Positions 4,292 through 15,376 of a stretch of DNA of 64,000 nt are shown here, one piece after another (position 1 is the stretch's first letter; every line of letters starts with the position of its first letter). The stretch covers positions 452,023 to 516,022 of the forward strand of contig JBMORU010000001.1 in assembly GCA_049322215.1 (NCBI GenBank). The letters run 5' to 3'. The DNA comes from Patescibacteria group bacterium (GTDB taxonomy: Bacteria > Patescibacteriota > WWE3 > UBA101185 > UBA10185). A program made the position numbers and the translations under genes. The notes beneath the pieces were generated by a model. It made no database searches, was not told the DNA's origin, and worked only from the letters and a program-made list of their open reading frames with translations.

Positions 4292-7200
4292 TTAATTTGG
4301 ATATTTAATCCAGGATACTCCCAAACTTTCAGCTACATCTGCTTCATATAAGTCGGCTTCTAAAGAGCCTCTATAAGCTGCTTTACATCTATCTTGTGTA
4401 CAATTTCCAATAGGGAAATGATTTGCTTTTACTGGAACGCAATCTAACCCTGTTTGTGTACATCCTTCTACAATATCGCCGTATCTATTTGTATAGCCGT
4501 TAAATGTAAAGAAACCGTTTTTTTGGCCATCTTCGTCGTATTGTGACCCATCCATATCTTGGTATATTTTTACCCAAATTCTAAATAATGCTGCTGCACT
4601 ATTATTGTTGTCGCAAGTTATTAAATTAGTTTCAGGGTCTACACACCAAAAATGGGGATTTTGCTCGGTTGAAGGTAATAATGCCTGTGTTGGGTCTGTT
4701 TCACCTATACTTTCACCTTGATCAAAGTGAATACCAAAACCAACCATTAATCTTTTTACCCCTGTTGGATCAGAACTTAGCAGGTTATACTCATTTCCTT
4801 CTGTTTGCCATGAGTCTAAGCTGTTTTTACCAATCGGATGAATTCTGTAAGGTGCTAGTTCTGCGGGAGAGTTTGCGAATTCAGGAGGATCCCCAGGCAA
4901 GGGTGCATAGGTGCCTCTATTTGGAAAGTTTAAACGCCCAAAATCAACCCAACCTCCGCCACTGTATGTGCCACAGTTATCAGTTACTACGCCTTGAGAG
5001 GCAGGATCTACGTTATCGCTGTCACAAGCTCTAATTTGTGCATAGGTACTATGAAATCTTGTAAAAGCGCCTAATTGGCCACCAATCTGGTGATAGTGAA
5101 CTCTTGCATCTGTAATTGTGTTTGAACCAAGTAGTAACGATCCCGTAGAGGCATCTCTATCCTTTACGTATAGCCAGTGATTTCCTTCATGTTTAGCAGA
5201 GTTTTCGGTTGTAGTACCAGGAATATAGGATTCAAAGTTTGCGCCTGCTCCCGCAAATGTCTGCCAAGGGTAAGAAATATCTACAGGTTTGCCAACATCA
5301 CTGCCAAACCAGTTGTACACTTCGGTACCAAACACATCGTCCATATCATGAGGATCTTGCTTATGTTCATGATCCCAATGGCATCCTTCTGCAGGATTCC
5401 AAATACCATGCCATTTTCTTGAGTCGTGCTCTATACCTAATTCTTCGCATGAGGGTGCTTCTGCATACGGCGGTGTACCGTTTCCTATTCCTGGAGGGGG
5501 TGGTGCTGTGTCCCCACCATCACCCTCATCGTCTACAGGTGGGGGTGGCGTTGTATCATCGCAAGGTTGTGGGTTTCTTGGGCGCCTTCCAAGAACTCTA
5601 TCTACAAGATTTTGTACTCCTCTAACTGTTCTTCTAACAATGTTATCATCTTCGTAATCTCTACATTCTCGTGGATCCCCATCATCATTATCAGATTCCG
5701 TAACATTTATTGTTGTCTGATCTGTGGCTGTTTCACCAGTAGAATCAGCTATGGTTAAAGACAGTGTATAGGTTCCCGGTGTTTCATATGTATGATTAAT
5801 GTTTACTGCTTGCCCTGTTGTACCGTCGCCAAAATCCCAATTATACGAAACAATATTTCCGTTTGGCGAACTTGATGACGATGCAGATGCGGTTATATCT
5901 AATGGGGCACTTCCGGAAGTTGGAGCTACACTTATTACAGCCTGAATTTCGTTTTCTACAGGAGGTGGTGGGGGTGGAGGTGTTGTTCCTCCACCGTTGT
6001 TATTAAAACAGCTCCAGTGAAACTGTCCTAACCTTTCGCCAATAGTAAGGCCGGGTGCTTCAGAATCAGCTACCCCTAAAAGTCCATTTAAATTATGACC
6101 TACACCTGCGCCTAAACTTAGCTCCCGGCTTGCTTCAGGAACTCCTGCAACAGCTAAATAGTCATTTAAAGTGTTAATGGTTTCTTCACTGCCTAATCCT
6201 TCTACAGACCCCGCTGACATTTTAAATATCATACTTTGTGCAATGTCAGCGCTATCGGAGTTAATGTACTCTTGTATTTCTGGCCAATTGCTTGTAAAAG
6301 CGGGGGACAACGGTGCTATAGAACAAAATAAATCATTGTGTTTCAAACCTAAACGCATTGTACCTTGACCACCCATAGAAAATCCTTGCAAACCTCTTCC
6401 AAATCTATTTGCTACAGTTCTGTAAGTACTGTCAATATGAGGTATTAGTTCGTTAATTAGCATTGATTCCGGACACTCCTTTGTAGTCGCACAGTCACCT
6501 GGCGAGTCAACATACCCTAACCCTTTACCACCATTTGGAAATACCAAAATGGTTGGTGGAATTACGCCTCTTTCAACTAGGTTAATAAGGTTAGATGCAT
6601 TATTTTCAGTGGTACTTAAATAGTTACACTCTTGTCCGTTTACACCATGTAAAAAGTAAATAACAGGATACTTAGTAGTATTGCTTGGATTATCATACCC
6701 TTCGGGTTTGTAAATTGTGTAGCCAACCCAAGTATCCATTATGTTGCTGTAAAAGCTTTGTTTTTCTACTCTTGGTTCTGTTGGATTACACCACTGGGTG
6801 TTCCAAAAGCCGAATGTTTCATCAGAAGGTGGTGGAGGTGTTGTTCCTCCTCCTGAAGAACCCCCTACAAACCACATTTTTGTAGTTTCATCATTTTTAA
6901 AGAAATTTAACAGTTGCTGGCCTACATTGGTTCTACCACTAGCAGAAGGGTGTATACAATCTTGAGCTAAGTCCTGTTGAGTCCAGGAAGTACCATCTTG
7001 CCTTGGACTTTCATTAACCCAAAAATATGGACCCCATGATAACCACGGCGCCTTAACTACTCCAACATTTGGGTCGTAATTTAAGGTGGGATCTCCTTCT
7101 ATTTGACTTTGAATTAGCCACTTAACGCTGAATCCGGTTTCAAAAGCGGTTGGTTCTGGGCTTAAACCCTCCCAATATCGGTACGATCTTGTTCTACTTG

Positions 7201-8017
7201 ATATAAAAGCTTGCTTAATATTTGGGTACTTAGTTTTTAAATTTTGAACAATAAGCTCTAAATCTTCTTCTAGTGCTAAAGCTTTAGTAGGGAAGTTACC
7301 CGAACCCGATTGTGCTTGTTTTACCCAGGCAATTTGAACTTGCTCTGGGGTTATACCCGCACTAGCTAAACGTGCATCTAGTTCGTTCCATGTGGGTGCT
7401 GTTGGGTTTGTCCAAGCTACCGACGTTTGGCCACCTTGCGCGCCATTAACAATTACAAGGTTTTGGTTTAATGTAGAATCTTCTAAAGCCAAACGTGCAA
7501 ACTCTGTAAATTCTGAAGAGGTATTAGACATTCCTACGGAAATTAGCCCTATTTTCCCACTTGCGCTTGGGTTTCCATTAGCATCAAGTGGTACAACTGA
7601 GTTTCCTAGCTCTACACCTTTTGAATTATGTGCTGTAGGTCTAGTGTTTTGCCCATTTTTGTACAAACCACCTCCAATTTCAAATGAAGTTCCTGGCACG
7701 ATAGTAAAAGATTGTCCGTCCATACGTAGGTAGGGTCCTGTTAACTCATTAAGTGGCAAGCTTACATGTTGAAAAATTCCTTCACAAGTTGAAGGTGCCG
7801 TTGCTTGTAGTACGGCTTCACCGGAACTTGCCATACTAATTTGATTGGTACTATTAATACTTTTTGTTTGGTAAGTAATCCAGACACCAAAAATCCCAAG
7901 TATAAATAGCAGAGAAAATGAGAAAAGTGCTGTGTACTTGGTTTTAGACTTACTTTTGGGGGTTTGGAAAATTTCTGTTATTAGCTCATCTTGATTTTCT
8001 AATAGCTGTTCCGACAT
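4292..8017 (-). CDS. giant (1241 aa) membrane-anchored secreted multidomain protein: SGNH/GDSL-like hydrolase region, alpha/beta-hydrolase esterase (GFSMGG), PKD domain, and a Cys/Trp-rich C-terminal domain
   Basis: N-terminal TM helix. DCIHPS (DxxH block V) and GMSNT/VNGAQGG blocks suggest an SGNH fold. KYPVIYFLHGVNGQ...GFSMGGQGT is a GxSxG esterase. SYNWDFGDGTTG...HTYETPGTYTLSLTIADSTGETA is a PKD domain. Poly-Pro/Thr linkers (TTPPPPPPPV). Confidence 0.7.
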   Translation of the reverse strand: MSEQLLENQDELITEIFQTPKSKSKTKYTALFSFSLLFILGIFGVWITYQTKSINSTNQISMASSGEAVLQATAPSTCEGIFQHVSLPLNELTGPYLRMDGQSFTIVPGTSFEIGGGLYKNGQNTRPTAHNSKGVELGNSVVPLDANGNPSASGKIGLISVGMSNTSSEFTEFARLALEDSTLNQNLVIVNGAQGGQTSVAWTNPTAPTWNELDARLASAGITPEQVQIAWVKQAQSGSGNFPTKALALEEDLELIVQNLKTKYPNIKQAFISSRTRSYRYWEGLSPEPTAFETGFSVKWLIQSQIEGDPTLNYDPNVGVVKAPWLSWGPYFWVNESPRQDGTSWTQQDLAQDCIHPSASGRTNVGQQLLNFFKNDETTKMWFVGGSSGGGTTPPPPSDETFGFWNTQWCNPTEPRVEKQSFYSNIMDTWVGYTIYKPEGYDNPSNTTKYPVIYFLHGVNGQECNYLSTTENNASNLINLVERGVIPPTILVFPNGGKGLGYVDSPGDCATTKECPESMLINELIPHIDSTYRTVANRFGRGLQGFSMGGQGTMRLGLKHNDLFCSIAPLSPAFTSNWPEIQEYINSDSADIAQSMIFKMSAGSVEGLGSEETINTLNDYLAVAGVPEASRELSLGAGVGHNLNGLLGVADSEAPGLTIGERLGQFHWSCFNNNGGGTTPPPPPPPVENEIQAVISVAPTSGSAPLDITASASSSSSPNGNIVSYNWDFGDGTTGQAVNINHTYETPGTYTLSLTIADSTGETATDQTTINVTESDNDDGDPRECRDYEDDNIVRRTVRGVQNLVDRVLGRRPRNPQPCDDTTPPPPVDDEGDGGDTAPPPPGIGNGTPPYAEAPSCEELGIEHDSRKWHGIWNPAEGCHWDHEHKQDPHDMDDVFGTEVYNWFGSDVGKPVDISYPWQTFAGAGANFESYIPGTTTENSAKHEGNHWLYVKDRDASTGSLLLGSNTITDARVHYHQIGGQLGAFTRFHSTYAQIRACDSDNVDPASQGVVTDNCGTYSGGGWVDFGRLNFPNRGTYAPLPGDPPEFANSPAELAPYRIHPIGKNSLDSWQTEGNEYNLLSSDPTGVKRLMVGFGIHFDQGESIGETDPTQALLPSTEQNPHFWCVDPETNLITCDNNNSAAALFRIWVKIYQDMDGSQYDEDGQKNGFFTFNGYTNRYGDIVEGCTQTGLDCVPVKANHFPIGNCTQDRCKAAYRGSLEADLYEADVAESLGVSWIKYPN

Positions 8018-9335: not shown

Positions 9336-10583
9336 ATGAAATCATTAATCAGTTTTATAAAATCCAAAAAGCGTTACCTACTCATCGCACTTTCGATTGG
9401 AGGCATAATTTTTACAGGTCAACATCTATTAAGCGAAGATACTTCCTCGGACGCTCAGCAAGAAAGTATAACGGTAACTGTGGAAAGAGGAGCTATATCT
9501 CAAACTGTTTCAGCTTCTGGACAAATTGAAACCGCAAATTATTTAGGTGTGACAACCAGTGTAAATGGAATTGTTAAGGATGTATTTGTTAAGGAAGGAG
9601 ATACAGTTACAAAAGGTCAGCCAATTATGGTAATCACTTTAAACGCGGATGGTGAAGAAAACCTAGCTTCTGCGTGGGGTTCCTATCTTTCAGCAAAAAA
9701 TTCCTTAGAAAGTGCAACAGACAGTTTAAGTTCTTTAGAGTCCGCACTCATAACAGCTAAAGAAGCCTTTCAAGATGAAAAGGAGTCCAACAGCTATCAA
9801 ACTCATGACGAAAGAACTTCCTATACACTTGCAGAAAATACTGTAGAAACAGCTCAAGCAAATTATGACAACAAGCTCGATGAAATTAACCAAAAACAAG
9901 TTGCGTTGAATAAAGCGTGGTTAACTTACCAAGCACAATCTCCTACAATTGTTGCACCTAGCAGCGGTATTGTTGCAAATATTGTAGTTGTTGAAGGTAT
10001 GGATATTACTAACTCATTATCAGAAAGGACATCTTCAACTGTTGCTTCCATTAAAAACGAGGGAACACCGATTGCAACACTAAATATTAGCGAAGTGGAC
10101 ATAAATAAAGTAAAGGTTGGTCAGAAAGTTGGAGTTACATTGAACAGTAACAGTGATGAGCTGTTTATGGCTACTGTAGTAGGAATAGATAAGATTGGTA
10201 GTACTTCAAGTGGCGTATCTAATTATCCAGTGATTGTTAAATTTGACGAAGGATCCGACCTAGTACTTCCTAACATGGGCGTAGATGCAGAAATAATTAT
10301 CCAAGAAAAGGTTGATATTTTGTATGTACCAAGCTCTGCAATAAGTTCAGTTAGAGGGAGTACAGTTGTTAACGTAGTTGATGGTGTTACAGTAAGACCT
10401 GTAGAAGTAGAAACAGGCATTTCGACAAATGAATATACAGAAATAACCTCAGGTGTAGAACAAGGTACAGTTATACAGATAGACACGTTACCGACAACAG
10501 GATTTACCTCATCTAGTAATGACCAAGAAGGCTCTGGGGGAAGACCAGGTTTGGTACCATTTAGTGGTGGTGGAAGGAGATAA
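9336..10583 (+). CDS. HlyD/MacA-family periplasmic adaptor (membrane fusion protein)
   Basis: N-terminal TM, biotinyl/lipoyl-like hairpin GIVKDVFVKEGDTVTKGQPIMVI, long coiled-coil, and beta-barrel motifs. Located upstream of ABC ATPase and permease genes. Confidence 0.75.
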   Translation: MKSLISFIKSKKRYLLIALSIGGIIFTGQHLLSEDTSSDAQQESITVTVERGAISQTVSASGQIETANYLGVTTSVNGIVKDVFVKEGDTVTKGQPIMVITLNADGEENLASAWGSYLSAKNSLESATDSLSSLESALITAKEAFQDEKESNSYQTHDERTSYTLAENTVETAQANYDNKLDEINQKQVALNKAWLTYQAQSPTIVAPSSGIVANIVVVEGMDITNSLSERTSSTVASIKNEGTPIATLNISEVDINKVKVGQKVGVTLNSNSDELFMATVVGIDKIGSTSSGVSNYPVIVKFDEGSDLVLPNMGVDAEIIIQEKVDILYVPSSAISSVRGSTVVNVVDGVTVRPVEVETGISTNEYTEITSGVEQGTVIQIDTLPTTGFTSSSNDQEGSGGRPGLVPFSGGGRR

Positions 10584-10586
10584 TAC

Positions 10587-11291
10587 GTGCTCGAGGTTAA
10601 AAACGTATCAAAAATATACGAAAATGGTTCAGTTAAAACCATAGCCTTAGATGATGTTAGCTTCAAAATTGAAAAGGGTGAATTTGTTGCAATTATAGGG
10701 CCGTCTGGTTCAGGAAAATCCACTTTAATGCATATACTTGGCGCCCTTGATATTCCCACTTCAGGTGAATACTTACTTAATAATACAAATGTTGAACACA
10801 TGGACGACGATGAACTGGCAGATATAAGAAATAAGGAAATTGGGTTTGTATTCCAAGCGTACAACCTGCTTGCTAGAAGTTCTGCATTAAAGAATGTTTC
10901 TTTACCTATGATGTACGCAGGAATACCCAAAAAGGAACGCTATTATAGGGCTGTTAGTGCTTTAGAGGCAGTCGAGCTTGGAGACAAACTTAATAATGAG
11001 CCTAATCAGCTGTCAGGGGGGCAAAAACAGCGTGTTGCTATTGCTCGCGCATTATCTATGAACCCAAGCATCTTACTAGCAGATGAACCAACTGGAAATT
11101 TACCTACAAAACAAAGTGCAGAAATAATGGATATTTTCGATACCTTGAATATTAAAGGGCATACAGTACTTGTTATTACGCATGAAGATGAAATAGCAGC
11201 AAGAGCAAAAAGGGTAATTACTTTAGTAGATGGTAAAGTGGTTAGCGATAAAAAAGGTAAACACGAAAGGGTTGAACATGCGATTAATTGA
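10587..11291 (+). CDS. ABC transporter ATP-binding protein (MacB/LolD-like)
   Basis: Walker A GPSGSGKST, ABC signature LSGGQKQRVAIARAL, Walker B LLADEPTGNL. GTG start 4 nt after the adaptor stop. Confidence 0.85.
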   Translation: MLEVKNVSKIYENGSVKTIALDDVSFKIEKGEFVAIIGPSGSGKSTLMHILGALDIPTSGEYLLNNTNVEHMDDDELADIRNKEIGFVFQAYNLLARSSALKNVSLPMMYAGIPKKERYYRAVSALEAVELGDKLNNEPNQLSGGQKQRVAIARALSMNPSILLADEPTGNLPTKQSAEIMDIFDTLNIKGHTVLVITHEDEIAARAKRVITLVDGKVVSDKKGKHERVEHAIN

Positions 11292-12498
11292 ACTTTTTGA
11301 AGAAAGTATTTCGGTCTTAACCACAAACAGATTAAGAACGGGTCTTTCCGCACTCGGAATAATAATTGGTATAGGGTCTGTAATTACTTTAATGACTTTA
11401 GGGCAAGCAAGCCAACAAAGTGTTACTGAAAATATACAATCTTTGGGAGCTAATTTGTTAACAATATCTCCAGGATCTCAACAAGGGTTTGGATTTGTTA
11501 GAAATTCCAATAATAGCGTAACTACACTAACAAACGAAGACGCTAAAGCTATAGCAAAGTCACAAAGATTAACAACCATAGACAAAGTTGCTGCAAGCTA
11601 TTCGGCCAATTCACAAGTCTCTTATGGTTCAAACAACGATAATATTCAAATTGAAGGTGTAACAGCGGAATATTTTTCACTAAGAAATATTGATTTGCTA
11701 CTTGGACAACAAATTACAGAGCAGGACAATTTGCTTGTAAGAAAAAATGCAGTAATCAGCCAAGATGTTGTTGATGAGCTTATGGAAGGCACCGCTAACC
11801 CTATTGGCGAAACAATCAGGATAAGTGGGAATACATTTACAATAATTGGTGTTACAGAAGGACAATCTGGCTTTGGAGGATCAAGTAGTGTAATTTATAT
11901 TCCTCTTAGTACAGCACAAAATATCTTATTCGGTGTAAGTCATGTTAGTTCAATTTATGTAGGTGCAGAAGATGAAAACCAAATGGAGGCAGCTGAAAAT
12001 CAACTAGGTTGGCTTCTTCTAGAGTTACATGGGCTAGATACACCAACAGATGCTGACTTTTCTATTTCATCGCAAGGAGACATTCTAGAAACTGTTGGGG
12101 AGGTAACACAAACATTTACAACACTTTTAACAGGAATAGCTGCTATTTCGCTAGTTGTTGGTGGTATTGGAATTATGAATATAATGCTTGTTACTGTAAC
12201 CGAAAGAACAAGAGAAATCGGTATTAGAAAAGCAATCGGCGCTAAAAGAAAAGTAATAATACTACAATTTTTGATTGAATCTGTTCTTTTAACAGTAACC
12301 GGTGGATTTATAGGTGTAATTCTGGGTTTAGGTTTGTCCTTTATACTTACAAATTCAATGTCCCTACCAAACGTTGTTTCCTATAACGCAATTGGTCTTG
12401 CGGTTATGGTGTCTTGCATAATCGGCGTGGTATTTGGAATTTATCCTGCTTACAAGGCTTCAAAATTGCAACCTATTGAAGCACTAAGATACGAGTAA
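11278..12498 (+). CDS. ABC transporter permease, FtsX/MacB-like, with periplasmic domain
   Basis: MRLIELFEESISVL...4 TM helices with a large periplasmic loop. ATG at 11278 overlaps the ATPase stop, indicating translational coupling. Confidence 0.75.
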   Translation: MRLIELFEESISVLTTNRLRTGLSALGIIIGIGSVITLMTLGQASQQSVTENIQSLGANLLTISPGSQQGFGFVRNSNNSVTTLTNEDAKAIAKSQRLTTIDKVAASYSANSQVSYGSNNDNIQIEGVTAEYFSLRNIDLLLGQQITEQDNLLVRKNAVISQDVVDELMEGTANPIGETIRISGNTFTIIGVTEGQSGFGGSSSVIYIPLSTAQNILFGVSHVSSIYVGAEDENQMEAAENQLGWLLLELHGLDTPTDADFSISSQGDILETVGEVTQTFTTLLTGIAAISLVVGGIGIMNIMLVTVTERTREIGIRKAIGAKRKVIILQFLIESVLLTVTGGFIGVILGLGLSFILTNSMSLPNVVSYNAIGLAVMVSCIIGVVFGIYPAYKASKLQPIEALRYE

Positions 12499-12540
12499 TT
12501 GTTTAAGCTTATTCTCAGGAAAAGGCGCTAACATTTTCTC

Positions 12541-12813
12541 ATGAACAAACAATTAATAACTTACATAGCTCTTGCAGCAATCATTACCGGTCTACTTGGT
12601 TTCTATGGTGGTAGATTTTATGAAAGAAAAACCTCCCAACGCGATATGTCTCAGAGAATGCAAAACTTTGAGGAAGGAAACTTTCAACCTGAAGATAGAC
12701 CAGCGCGTGGAAACTTTCCAGAAGGTGGGAATTTAAGAATTCCCGTACAAAACAATACTGAACAAAATACAGATCAGGAAACTGGTCAAGCTACCGAATC
12801 AGAAAAGCAATAG
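12541..12813 (+). CDS. small membrane-anchored E/Q-rich hypothetical protein
   Basis: 90 aa with an N-terminal TM and a low-complexity tail. Followed by a 15-bp inverted repeat hairpin at 12860-12908. Confidence 0.4.
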   Translation: MNKQLITYIALAAIITGLLGFYGGRFYERKTSQRDMSQRMQNFEEGNFQPEDRPARGNFPEGGNLRIPVQNNTEQNTDQETGQATESEKQ

Positions 12814-13293: not shown

Positions 13294-13470
13294 TTCAATC
13301 TCCTTATATGGGTATTGTAACTTTACAAAAAAAATGTATGGTCTTGCCATAAACCACACCAGATAGGAGGTTAATCAGTAATGACGCTATTATACTATAG
13401 GTTGAGATGTGTTGCAACTAAATGTTAACCCATGATTCTTGGGATCACCAAAGAATAAGTTCTATTAACG

Positions 13471-14658
13471 CTAGAGATCTTCACAAACAGTGAGTTTAAG
13501 AGAAACAGACTCTGCAGGGAATTGGTCTAAAAGGAAGTGTTCTACTCTTATGTTTACCTGACCTAGTGGTCTTGGAACTGAGGTTTTCCAGGGTTGTCCT
13601 TGAAGGGGATACCAGCCATCGTCAGGATTTAAACCACTGTCTTGATAAGTTCCTATCAATTCCTCAGGAGGGCCTTCTACAAAAACTTTAAATGACTCTG
13701 TGCTTTGTGGGGGCTCTCCGCATCTTCCACCGTTTGGGCACGCATAGCAAAGTGCACCATCAGGACAATCTGATGGATGTCCTTCCCCACCATAACCCAC
13801 AACCGTAACTCTTGAGGTACGCGTTAAATTAAATGAAAATGTTTTCACGTTATGAATCGTATGGTCTGTAGAACTAATGACAAAGTCATTTATAACTCCA
13901 ATTTCTGTAGTTCCTGCGGGGCATGAAGTAGGCGATGGTTCGACCCATACAGAACAGTTTCCGCAATCAGTTGAGCATGTTGAGCACAATTCCGCACCAT
14001 TGCAAATACCGTCACCGCATACAGGAGGCGGTAGGGAACATGTGCCGCAGTCAGACGAACAGGTGGAGCAGGATTCAGTGCCGTTGCAGGTACCATCACC
14101 GCATACAGGGGGAGGTGGGGAACATGTGCCGCAATCAGACGAACAGGTGGAGCAGGATTCAGTGCCGTTGCAGGTACCATCACCACATGCAGGAGGTGGT
14201 GGGGGTGGCGTACTTGGTACTGTGCATGAATTAACAATATAAGCGCATCCAGACACGTCTTCGAATATAGTTCTATCAATAGAGCAATAGCTTAAGCAGC
14301 CGGTATCAAAGCGCGTTGCGTCTACTGAAAATGCATTTGGAGTACCAGGTATGAAGTTATAAGTGTATATTGCTCCATCTGGAGTGCCACTTGGCCAGTT
14401 TTTTACATATGTAGATACTCCTTCTTCGTCTGCTATATCTCCGTTTCCATTTAGGTCTTGAGGAACGTATCCTTCTAGTTGTACAAAGGCGTGTAAGGAT
14501 TCACTAGCTTTAAGCAAGTTTGATCTAACTACCGCGTTTTTGGCGGCATCAGTCTTTTTGTTTCTATTTACTACATTTAAGGCAATTGTTGAAAGTCCTC
14601 CTAGGAGAATCACAACGATTAATAGCTCTATTAGTGTGAATCCTTTGGTATTGTTCAT
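13471..14658 (-). CDS. type IV pilin/pseudopilin-like protein (prepilin N-terminal methylation motif) carrying a Cys-rich tandem repeat
   Basis: The N-terminus MNNTKGFTLIELLIVVILLGG is a class III signal (G|FTLIEL). Three copies of CGDGTCNGTESCSTCSSDCGTCS separated by PPPPV. Confidence 0.75.
   Translation of the reverse strand: MNNTKGFTLIELLIVVILLGGLSTIALNVVNRNKKTDAAKNAVVRSNLLKASESLHAFVQLEGYVPQDLNGNGDIADEEGVSTYVKNWPSGTPDGAIYTYNFIPGTPNAFSVDATRFDTGCLSYCSIDRTIFEDVSGCAYIVNSCTVPSTPPPPPPACGDGTCNGTESCSTCSSDCGTCSPPPPVCGDGTCNGTESCSTCSSDCGTCSLPPPVCGDGICNGAELCSTCSTDCGNCSVWVEPSPTSCPAGTTEIGVINDFVISSTDHTIHNVKTFSFNLTRTSRVTVVGYGGEGHPSDCPDGALCYACPNGGRCGEPPQSTESFKVFVEGPPEELIGTYQDSGLNPDDGWYPLQGQPWKTSVPRPLGQVNIRVEHFLLDQFPAESVSLKLTVCEDL
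14017..14184. repeat. 84-bp coding tandem repeat (two near-identical units, diverged partial copies on both sides about 13971-14215) inside the pilin-like gene
   Basis: 14017-14100 and 14101-14184 differ at only a few positions. Each unit encodes one Cys-rich unit plus its Pro linker. Confidence 0.8.
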
Positions 14659-14872: not shown

Positions 14873-15376
14873 ATGAAAAAACTTTTCCTTATAATTTTCA
14901 TTGTATTGTTGACCCTTGTTGTTGCTGCGATTTATTTTACAAAGCAGAGCCCCGCCACCCCAGACATAAAAGTACGAAAACCCGAATCTGAAGCTTTTCC
15001 CTCAAATACTGAAGAAACTGACTCGAATTTAGAGCCTCCATCAAAAGTGGATGATTTAATAATTTTGGAATCTCCACGCGTTGAAGATACAGTTTCTTCC
15101 CCACTTGTTGTGCGTGGTGAAGCTAGAGGGACATGGTTTTTTGAAGCCACATTTCCCGTTATTTTAACCGATTGGGATGGCAGAATTATTGCCGAAACCT
15201 ATGCAACTGCACAAGATGAGTGGATGACAGAGGCCTATGTTCCATTTGAAGCTACTATAGAATTTGATGTTGATACTTCTGTAAGTAACCGTGGAAGTCT
15301 TATTCTTCAAAAGGCAAATCCTTCCGGCCTACCAGAAAATGACAATGCACTAGAAATAACTGTTTATTTTGAATAG
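14873..15376 (+). CDS. secreted/anchored protein with Gmad2-like immunoglobulin-like domain
   Basis: N-terminal TM/signal. SPLVVRGEARGTWFFEATFPVILTDWDGRIIAETYATAQDEWMTEAYVPFEATIEFD matches the Gmad2 pattern. Confidence 0.5.
   Translation: MKKLFLIIFIVLLTLVVAAIYFTKQSPATPDIKVRKPESEAFPSNTEETDSNLEPPSKVDDLIILESPRVEDTVSSPLVVRGEARGTWFFEATFPVILTDWDGRIIAETYATAQDEWMTEAYVPFEATIEFDVDTSVSNRGSLILQKANPSGLPENDNALEITVYFE

Follow-up and report, generated by a model that had tools for sequence, protein, structure and literature searches.

Patescibacteria, members of the Candidate Phyla Radiation (CPR), live attached to other cells with type IV pili as their best-supported attachment device, and few of their adhesins are known. 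Modular type IV pilins have been described for Streptococcus sanguinis, where PilB carries a vWA module and PilC a lectin module, and for enterotoxigenic Escherichia coli (ETEC), where CofB is composed of a pilin, a beta-repeat, and a beta-sandwich domain (Raynaud et al. 2021, PMC8179133). Among CPR bacteria, which generally possess type IV pilus machinery and are enriched in disulfide oxidoreductases of the MdbA/VKOR type (10.1101/335083), TM7x (Saccharibacteria) has two such minor pilins, PilX1 with a C-terminal jelly-roll-like domain and PilX2 with a beta-propeller, the latter being needed for host binding (PMC11623550). Surface proteins with a stalk of variable length are known as Periscope proteins and include SasG, Rib, and Sgo_0707 (Whelan et al. 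2021, PMC8201768). Here, we describe a gene on the minus strand of a 64-kb stretch of patescibacterial DNA (positions 452,023 to 516,022 of contig JBMORU010000001.1; in the following, "the window" refers to this whole stretch) that we compare to these systems. We consider it fairly probable that its product is a modular type IV pilin in which a stalk of six-cysteine modules (Cys6) carries a jelly-roll head, and that its source is a WWE3-like bacterium of the CPR.

The open reading frame (ORF) at 13471..14658 on the minus strand is a complete coding sequence of 395 residues, and its translation opens with MNNTKG followed by FTLIELLIVVILLGGLSTIAL. Of the protein's 28 cysteines, the pilin head contributes 4, the repeats 18, and the C-terminal domain 6, with an even number in every module and in each domain. 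With regard to the source organism, the window's RpoB is closest, among the species representatives of GTDB, to candidate division WWE3 CSP1-7 (60% identity), with other Patescibacteria next at around 50%; the window has 36% GC and includes housekeeping genes such as rpoBC, a ribosomal cluster, secA, and tRNA synthetases.

The sequence-only reading of this DNA had recognized a prepilin signal and called the protein type IV pilin-like, and profile searches bear this out. The N-terminus MNNTKG/FTLIELLIVV (slash at the predicted cleavage site) scores above the cut-offs of both PF07963 (N_methyl; 24.7 bits versus 21.2) and TIGR02532 (25.3 bits versus 16.3), and a profile built from residues 1-150 plus few relatives of the pilin module (alignment A4) matches type IV pilins of solved structure, starting at their first mature position and extending over 60-80 residues, with E-values of 9e-14 for Geopilin, 3.5e-7 for Neisseria PilE, 1.8e-6 for Myxococcus xanthus PilA, and 3e-5 for GspG. 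The features of prepilin processing are retained among relatives, with G6, F7, and E11 (corresponding to G(-1), F1, and E5) invariant in alignments A4 and A5, and the four head cysteines C121, C125, C138, and C145 are likewise kept in paralogs and homologs. A word-indexed search with this domain gave just 2 matches, and the closest relative of the pilin module, P0121 with 43% identity, has its gene among several consecutive pilin genes, after which those for PilM, PilN, and PilO follow. AlphaFold2 (AF2) predicts a helix at residues 9-55 with low confidence, while the predicted local distance difference test (pLDDT) score of the pilin head is around 30. Judged by its sequence profile, the N-terminal module is thus a type IV pilin module. 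We infer processing of the leader and incorporation into a pilus from the near-universal distribution of type IV pilus machinery in CPR bacteria (10.1101/335083), since no gene of this machinery was found among the ORFs scanned in the window.

A prepilin-type N-terminus could alternatively serve for export and membrane anchoring only, with the protein being displayed on the surface or released from it without any filament. Proteins with class III signal peptides that form surface assemblies rather than pili exist as precedents, and this scenario would suit a gene that is unlinked to any pilus operon and encodes a mature protein of 389 residues, far above the size of typical major pilins; a stalk with a head would also work straight from a monoderm-like CPR membrane. 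However, the homology to pilins is not limited to the cleavage site but spans the whole alpha1 helix including E5, a residue that matters for filament assembly. Moreover, relatives of the pilin module and another pilin with Cys6 units are encoded within type IV pilus operons, and those modular pilins that have been studied do enter pili (PMC8179133). We regard export without a filament as distinctly improbable and continue with the protein as a probable pilus subunit.

The pilin module is followed by a repeat array that Tandem Repeats Finder (TRF) reports at 13961-14204 with a period of 84, 2.9 copies, and a score of 341. It comprises three in-frame units of 28 residues, with units 1 and 2 located as given in Table 1 and unit 3 at 13936-14019. 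The near-identity of about 95% that had been noted earlier for two 84-bp units is accurate, given that units 1 and 2 agree in frame at 79/84 nucleotides (94%) and 27/28 residues, far beyond chance, and 4/5 of their nucleotide differences fall on third codon positions. The core that they share is a perfect stretch of 50 nucleotides (14135-14184, identical to 14051-14100). Unit 3 has 63-64% DNA identity to units 1 and 2 and aligns with the last unit of homologs, and in comparison to a homolog with two units (P0001, see below), one unit of the pair formed by units 1 and 2 is without a counterpart, with the alignment leaving unit 1 unmatched. The best explanation for units 1 and 2 is that they are the product of one in-frame unit duplication, and the recent expansion proposed by the sequence-only reading can be understood as this one comparatively recent event. 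That reading had further placed diverged units on either side of the similar pair, which holds for the C-terminal side with unit 3 but not for the N-terminal side, where nothing but PPPPPP separates unit 1 from the end of the pilin head; this end with its four cysteines is conserved in homologs and does not fit the unit pattern. No further Cys unit and no second prepilin motif were found elsewhere in the 64-kb window.

The base composition of the array differs from its surroundings. Third-position GC is 0.46 in unit 1, 0.54 in unit 2, and 0.39 in unit 3 (13936-14187; a small sample with 28 codons per unit), compared to 0.28-0.29 in the pilin and C-terminal domains and 0.22-0.28 in other genes of the window. 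The repeat is in this sense compositionally atypical, possible reasons being that the module was acquired recently, that it underwent gene conversion, or that its codons are constrained.

In a set of 5.8 billion proteins, the sole full-length relative is P0001, a protein of 362 residues with two units that is 47% identical to the window protein by BLASTP and 53% in the alignment. Its mate in a 90% identity cluster, P0147, carries the NCBI annotation [quoted passage not shown], and its gene is located on L090, a Logan contig of 197 kb from the same sample as the window. Directly upstream of the P0147 gene, with an overlap of 8 nucleotides, a gene of 438 residues encodes the same architecture with five units, so that the three family members have 2, 3, and 5 units. 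The GC content of L090 equals that of the window, their tetranucleotide frequencies correlate with r=0.979 just like the two halves of the window do, both occur in the same two samples, and no gene besides the pilin family is duplicated or shared between them. On the other hand, the 1.11-Mb contig at NCBI that encodes P0147 lacks four proteins of the window. Given this overlap in composition and samples versus the four missing proteins, the three genes are either paralogs in one genome or homologs in co-occurring sister populations.

A close strain from ERR15087771 (contig L003) shows directly that the number of units in this pilin family is subject to change even among strains that are very close. 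While the 362-residue gene and its flank are 99.8% identical between L090 and L003, the upstream five-unit gene is one whole 75-nt unit short in L003; its first visible unit is just 78% identical, and its C-terminal domain is 97.1% identical. The units of this homolog are 53-77% identical to each other and no two of them share more than 17 nucleotides exactly, so the 75-nt difference is not an artefact of an assembler operating at k=31. The comparison of L003 1-744 with L090 9190-10008 is a mosaic in which the changes in the C-terminal domain of the upstream gene are mostly synonymous and the repeats are 78-97% identical. This pattern suggests an import by recombination that was confined to the upstream 438-residue gene.

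For the window gene itself, the three-unit structure might be questioned as a collapsed or expanded repeat, because independent k=31 assemblies of two samples do not cross it. Three Logan contigs of SRR32167788 (the same sample) match the window at 100% identity, and two of them stop inside the gene, with L004 ending at 14080 and L002 starting at 14155. Both breaks lie exactly 30 nucleotides (k-1) beyond the single-nucleotide differences that border the 50-nt core of units 1 and 2, as expected of a k=31 graph, and the three-unit count is therefore neither confirmed nor contradicted by these assemblies. An artefact is nevertheless extremely unlikely, considering that the breakpoints are precisely those that the shared core predicts, that the five differences between units 1 and 2 permit any assembler with k>50 to order the units, and that the flanks specific to each unit are both present at 100% identity in Logan contigs. 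The reading frame is also intact, and homologs share the architecture. Genes with repeats of this kind will be systematically split in protein catalogs derived from Logan, and their products would be missing there. The exact look-up of the 395-residue sequence found no record of it, which is explained by the splitting of the Logan contigs at the repeat.

The sequence-only reading had proposed the repeat as a mechanism of phase or size variation. Differences in size do exist in the family, both as 2, 3, and 5 units and as the one-unit indel in the homolog. On/off phase variation is contradicted by the unit itself, which at 84 bp (75 bp in the homolog) is a multiple of three, lies inside the coding sequence, and is present in only two similar copies; since it is in frame, gain or loss of a unit alters length without acting as a switch. 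Size variation could still be rapid, as in a contingency locus of the Periscope type where frequent recombination would maintain a population mix of alleles with 2, 3, and 4 units and selection would act on stalk length (reach, or evasion of phages or hosts). The perfect 50-nt core of units 1 and 2 suffices for homologous recombination, the Periscope concept ties the identity of repeat DNA to copy-number variation (PMC8201768), and the homolog differs by a whole unit next to a gene that is 99.8% identical. In addition, the best 120 of more than 300 database proteins that match only via the repeat include 25 in which adjacent units are at least 90% identical, and unit duplication can therefore be called a general habit of the module. 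But just two of the three units in the window gene are similar, and these already differ at 5/84 positions. A strain that is 98.4% identical (L005 from ERR15087771) has the C-terminal half of the gene intact with 3 amino acid changes, and its assembly breaks in the repeat at 14077; as this is nearly the same place, the strain appears to carry the same core, which suggests that the duplication predates the split of the strains. Furthermore, the five-unit homolog gained or lost a unit despite an identity of 53-77% between units, which looks like a slow evolutionary process and not like a high-frequency switch. A contingency locus in this strict sense appears unlikely to us, though ongoing length variation of the window gene is possible.

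In the 120 proteins mentioned above, the unit is a strict module of 22 residues, C-G-D-G-x-C-N-G-x-E-x-C-x-[ST]-C-x-x-D-C-G-x-C, with about half of the positions invariant, and it usually occurs in 3-8 tandem copies with Pro-rich linkers of 2-5 residues; the linkers SPPPPV and SLPPPV with their 6 residues are at the long end of the range. The domains that it connects are extracellular and differ widely, including CAP, PKD, peptidase M23, RCC1, PPC, DUF11, and others. Its display on pilins is recurrent, as evident from P0012, a prepilin with around 10 Cys6 units that is encoded between PilC and pilins on one side and PilM/N on the other. Many of the matching proteins bear names of the Myxococcota type, and the sequence-only reading had likened the unit to the Myxococcus-type repeat TIGR02232. 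This assignment did not hold up, because the TIGR02232 model (cut-off 20.8 bits) has no match at E<=1 to the window protein or to P0012, P0005, or P0104, all three of which contain the Cys6 unit in many copies; in P0071, which served as a positive control, it scores 56.1 bits on a different repeat that adjoins the Cys6 units. Pfam and NCBIfam models including DUF4215 do not match the Cys6 unit either, even in proteins with around 10 copies, and among PDB sequences the repeat finds only a cbEGF domain of fibrillin at a non-significant E-value of 2.6. At the level of sequence comparison, the Cys6 unit is therefore a widespread, uncurated extracellular module distinct from TIGR02232.

The six cysteines of each module would be expected to form three disulfides, which fits the enrichment of MdbA/VKOR enzymes in the CPR (10.1101/335083). 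With 18 cysteines in 84 residues, CxxC spacing included, a role in metal binding or redox chemistry also comes to mind, i.e., coordination of Zn, Fe, or Cu, or of Ca2+ via the invariant acidic residues D3, E10, and D18, through which the protein would capture metal or transfer electrons at the pilus. Anoxic habitats, in which disulfides outside the cell are less to be expected, are home to many CPR bacteria, and one protein (P0055) joins the Cys6 unit with the putative metal-binding motif PF11617. Yet the number of cysteines is even in every module and each domain, no metal-binding family was matched, and hundreds of proteins use the unit to space extracellular domains that are unrelated to each other; the enrichment of disulfide machinery in CPR genomes (10.1101/335083) also speaks for a structural role. 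We view metal binding or redox activity as highly unlikely and disulfide-stabilized spacers as the expected nature of the modules.

The C-terminal domain (residues 236-395) belongs to a rare family. An exhaustive hmmsearch against 1.84 billion representatives gave 24 hits in total, which are secreted proteins that also contain pAdhesive_15, GEVED, SdrD_B, beta-helix, and DUF11 domains and whose named sources include Chloroflexaceae and Candidatus Dojkabacteria. In their alignment (A3), the residues E292, G293, H294, P295, C298, G301, C304, Q318, E321, D340, W349, W357, H374, S384, V385, and C392 are near-invariant. A word-indexed search with the profile of this domain gave just 2 matches, and no relatives appeared in a scan of GTDB genomes or in two scans of metagenomes from the Joint Genome Institute (JGI) with patterns of the domain and with the degenerate DNA pattern of NWPxGTPxGAxYxY. 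None of the 22 members of the family matches Pfam at E<=1, and the domain has no match to PDB sequences at E<=10. One further relative, P0125 (L086 130-411), is a stand-alone ORF of 93 residues that comprises just the last two-thirds of the domain at 55% identity to the query; preceded by unrelated sequence and located on an ENA contig of 856 nt, this pseudogene or fragment of a gene is uninformative.

Structure prediction with AF2 on alignment A3 gives a beta-sandwich with a pLDDT of 85.9 and a predicted template modeling (pTM) score of 0.82. The best Foldseek matches are jelly rolls with TM scores of 0.35-0.46, i.e., weak and without any at E<=1e-3 in the PDB, and comprise VP2 of infectious bursal disease virus (IBDV), the tail tip of phage lambda, Eph ligand-binding domains, the P domain of furin, and CBM36, besides phage minor tail, tail-fiber, and "galactose binding" proteins. 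Based on this fold class and the adhesin-type domains that accompany it in other proteins, we infer that the C-terminal domain may bind a ligand.

Modular pilins join a pilin module to a module that is not specific to type IV pili, and this is also what we find here, with both the C-terminal domain and the Cys6 unit occurring in non-pilin proteins. The following course of events can be envisioned. Prepilin peptidase would remove the leader of 6 residues, and the hydrophobic alpha1 helix would serve as its anchor, initially in the membrane and later within the core of the type IV filament. Three modules of 22 residues with six cysteines, presumably three disulfides each, and conserved acidic residues could form a stiff stalk together with the polyproline linkers, and this stalk would hold the jelly-roll beta-sandwich off the filament so that it could bind a ligand, for which a host cell or some other surface is the most likely place. 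Recombination or slippage between units that resemble each other would add or remove whole units in frame, and the stalk would thereby evolve in length. The protein is probably a minor pilin that is of low abundance or exposed at the tip, and the adhesin role on a pilus that the sequence-only reading had envisioned seems the most plausible one by analogy to modular minor pilins (PMC8179133; PMC11623550).

A number of points weigh against this reading. The protein is known here from its gene sequence alone, and this gene stands by itself among housekeeping and transporter genes, with no pilB/C/D/M/T and no dsb or other disulfide-oxidoreductase gene among the around 30 ORFs scanned in the window; no pilus machinery gene was found in the 21-kb homologous locus of L090 either. 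Variation in copy number of the window gene was not observed, as both Logan assemblies break in the repeat. The full-length AF2 model has a pLDDT of 44, so the folds of the pilin head and the repeats are low-confidence predictions, and the fold matches of the C-terminal domain are weak and name no ligand.

Even with these points in mind, the locus gives a concrete candidate for a CPR adhesin in which a head sits on a stalk that extends from a pilin module. Two of its building blocks are uncurated and merit the definition of a family, the widespread 22-residue Cys6 spacer and the rare jelly-roll domain, and the length of a stalk on a pilus subunit that shifts by gain or loss of whole units is a case that is open to test. 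A bolder proposal, which we put forward as a rather speculative one, would be a small CPR family of type IV pilus tip adhesins that have an adjustable, "periscope"-like connector, in which Cys6 modules recombine and so vary the stalk (2, 3, or 5 units; indels between strains), and whose head is a new jelly-roll domain for ligand binding shared with surface proteins of Chloroflexota; if true, the connector would tune the reach or host range of these episymbionts. Since modular pilins and stalk proteins of variable length are both established, the value of the locus is incremental and no new principle is involved.

Table 1. Features of the probable modular pilin gene and its protein product (positions in the window).
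Feature	Position	Strand	Basis
Coding sequence of the candidate modular pilin, 395 residues, with stop codon at 13471-13473	13471..14658	-	ORF list, translation, cysteine count
Class III (prepilin) leader MNNTKG ending in Gly(-1); predicted cut by prepilin peptidase before Phe7	14641..14658	-	sequence, alignments, HMMs (hidden Markov models)
Pilin module, mature residues 7-150: hydrophobic alpha1-N, long alpha1 helix, head with C121, C125, C138, C145	14209..14640	-	profile versus solved pilins
Proline run PPPPPPA at the joint of pilin head and repeat	14188..14208	-	sequence; PPPPPPPT at this place in the 438-residue homolog
Unit 1: 22-residue Cys6 module CGDGTCNGTESCSTCSSDCGTC (14122-14187) plus linker SPPPPV (14104-14121)	14104..14187	-	TRF, unit comparison
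Unit 2: Cys6 module identical to that of unit 1 (14038-14103) plus linker SLPPPV (14020-14037)	14020..14103	-	TRF, unit comparison
Unit 3: diverged Cys6 module CGDGICNGAELCSTCSTDCGNC	13954..14019	-	63-64% DNA identity to units 1 and 2
C-terminal domain, residues 236-395, predicted jelly-roll-like beta-sandwich of a rare uncurated family	13474..13953	-	hmmsearch, A3, AF2
Terminator-like hairpin with a run of T behind it, 112 nt past the stop codon, possible transcript end	13336..13359	-	weak consensus match

The hairpin downstream of the gene is by itself not significant, with 1 site compared to 1.6 expected in shuffled sequences. Two antisense ORFs (13877-14242 and 13935-14234 on the plus strand) and an out-of-frame ORF on the same strand (13890-14279, minus) were rejected as the repeat read in another frame. 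Divergent from the pilin gene, a plus-strand gene at 14873-15376 encodes a protein of 167 residues whose N-terminus is hydrophobic and which contains an immunoglobulin-like domain of the Gmad2 type (PF10648, 53.6 bits). On the other side, the pilin gene is adjoined by an operon on the plus strand for an ABC exporter of the MacA/MacB type (9336-12813) with a periplasmic adaptor-like protein, an ABC ATPase, and an FtsX permease, followed by a 90-residue protein with a hydrophobic N-terminus. An ORF of 1,241 residues with esterase and PKD domains (4292-8017, minus strand), 5 kb from the pilin gene, may encode another secreted or surface protein. In L005, around 175 nucleotides are inserted just past the pilin stop codon (L005 2452-2625, between window positions 13465 and 13462); by eye, this insertion resembles the FtsX/MacB permease of 11230-12498 (…GGIGLMNIMLV…IRKAIGAKRK…IQFLIES) and looks like a pseudogene remnant or small duplication.

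How does the candidate compare to the described systems? The "Pam pilus" of CPR bacteria is not of this kind, as it belongs to the donor-strand-exchange pili. Much closer are PilB, PilC, and CofB, which like the window protein start with a class III signal peptide, continue with a small pilin module, and end in a functional C-terminal module that is known outside pili; the predicted binding of a ligand at the tip is also shared, and the three-part layout is that of CofB. Unlike in these proteins, where a short loop or a beta-repeat domain forms the connection, the connector is an array of 22-residue Cys6 modules with polyproline linkers, the C-terminal domain is from an uncurated family without sequence relation to the vWA, lectin, or CofB domains, and the gene is found in a CPR bacterium outside any pilus operon. 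PilX1 of TM7x, compared here by its description, is likewise a large pilin-like protein of the CPR with a beta-rich accessory domain at the C-terminus that is similar in fold to lectins and capsid proteins, and its proposed role is that of a tip adhesin in episymbiosis; however, PilX1 and PilX2 were reported to lack a predicted PilD signal and are encoded in type IV pilus loci (PMC11623550), while the window protein has a textbook signal, a stalk of Cys repeats, and an isolated locus.

At the level of the repeat, the Cys6 unit has in common with TIGR02232 that it is a short, acidic, Cys-rich unit opening with C-G-[DN]-G that occurs in tandem in secreted proteins, and both are found side by side in P0071, but the TIGR02232 unit has 38 residues and another cysteine pattern, compared to the 22 residues seen here. 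As in Periscope proteins, small modules in tandem with proline-containing linkers would project a terminal binding domain, and in a homolog of the window protein the number of repeats differs between related strains. Periscope proteins, in turn, have a wall or membrane anchor and many highly identical repeats with large ranges of copy number, whereas the window family has a pilin anchor and 2-5 mostly diverged units that may behave like a rod.

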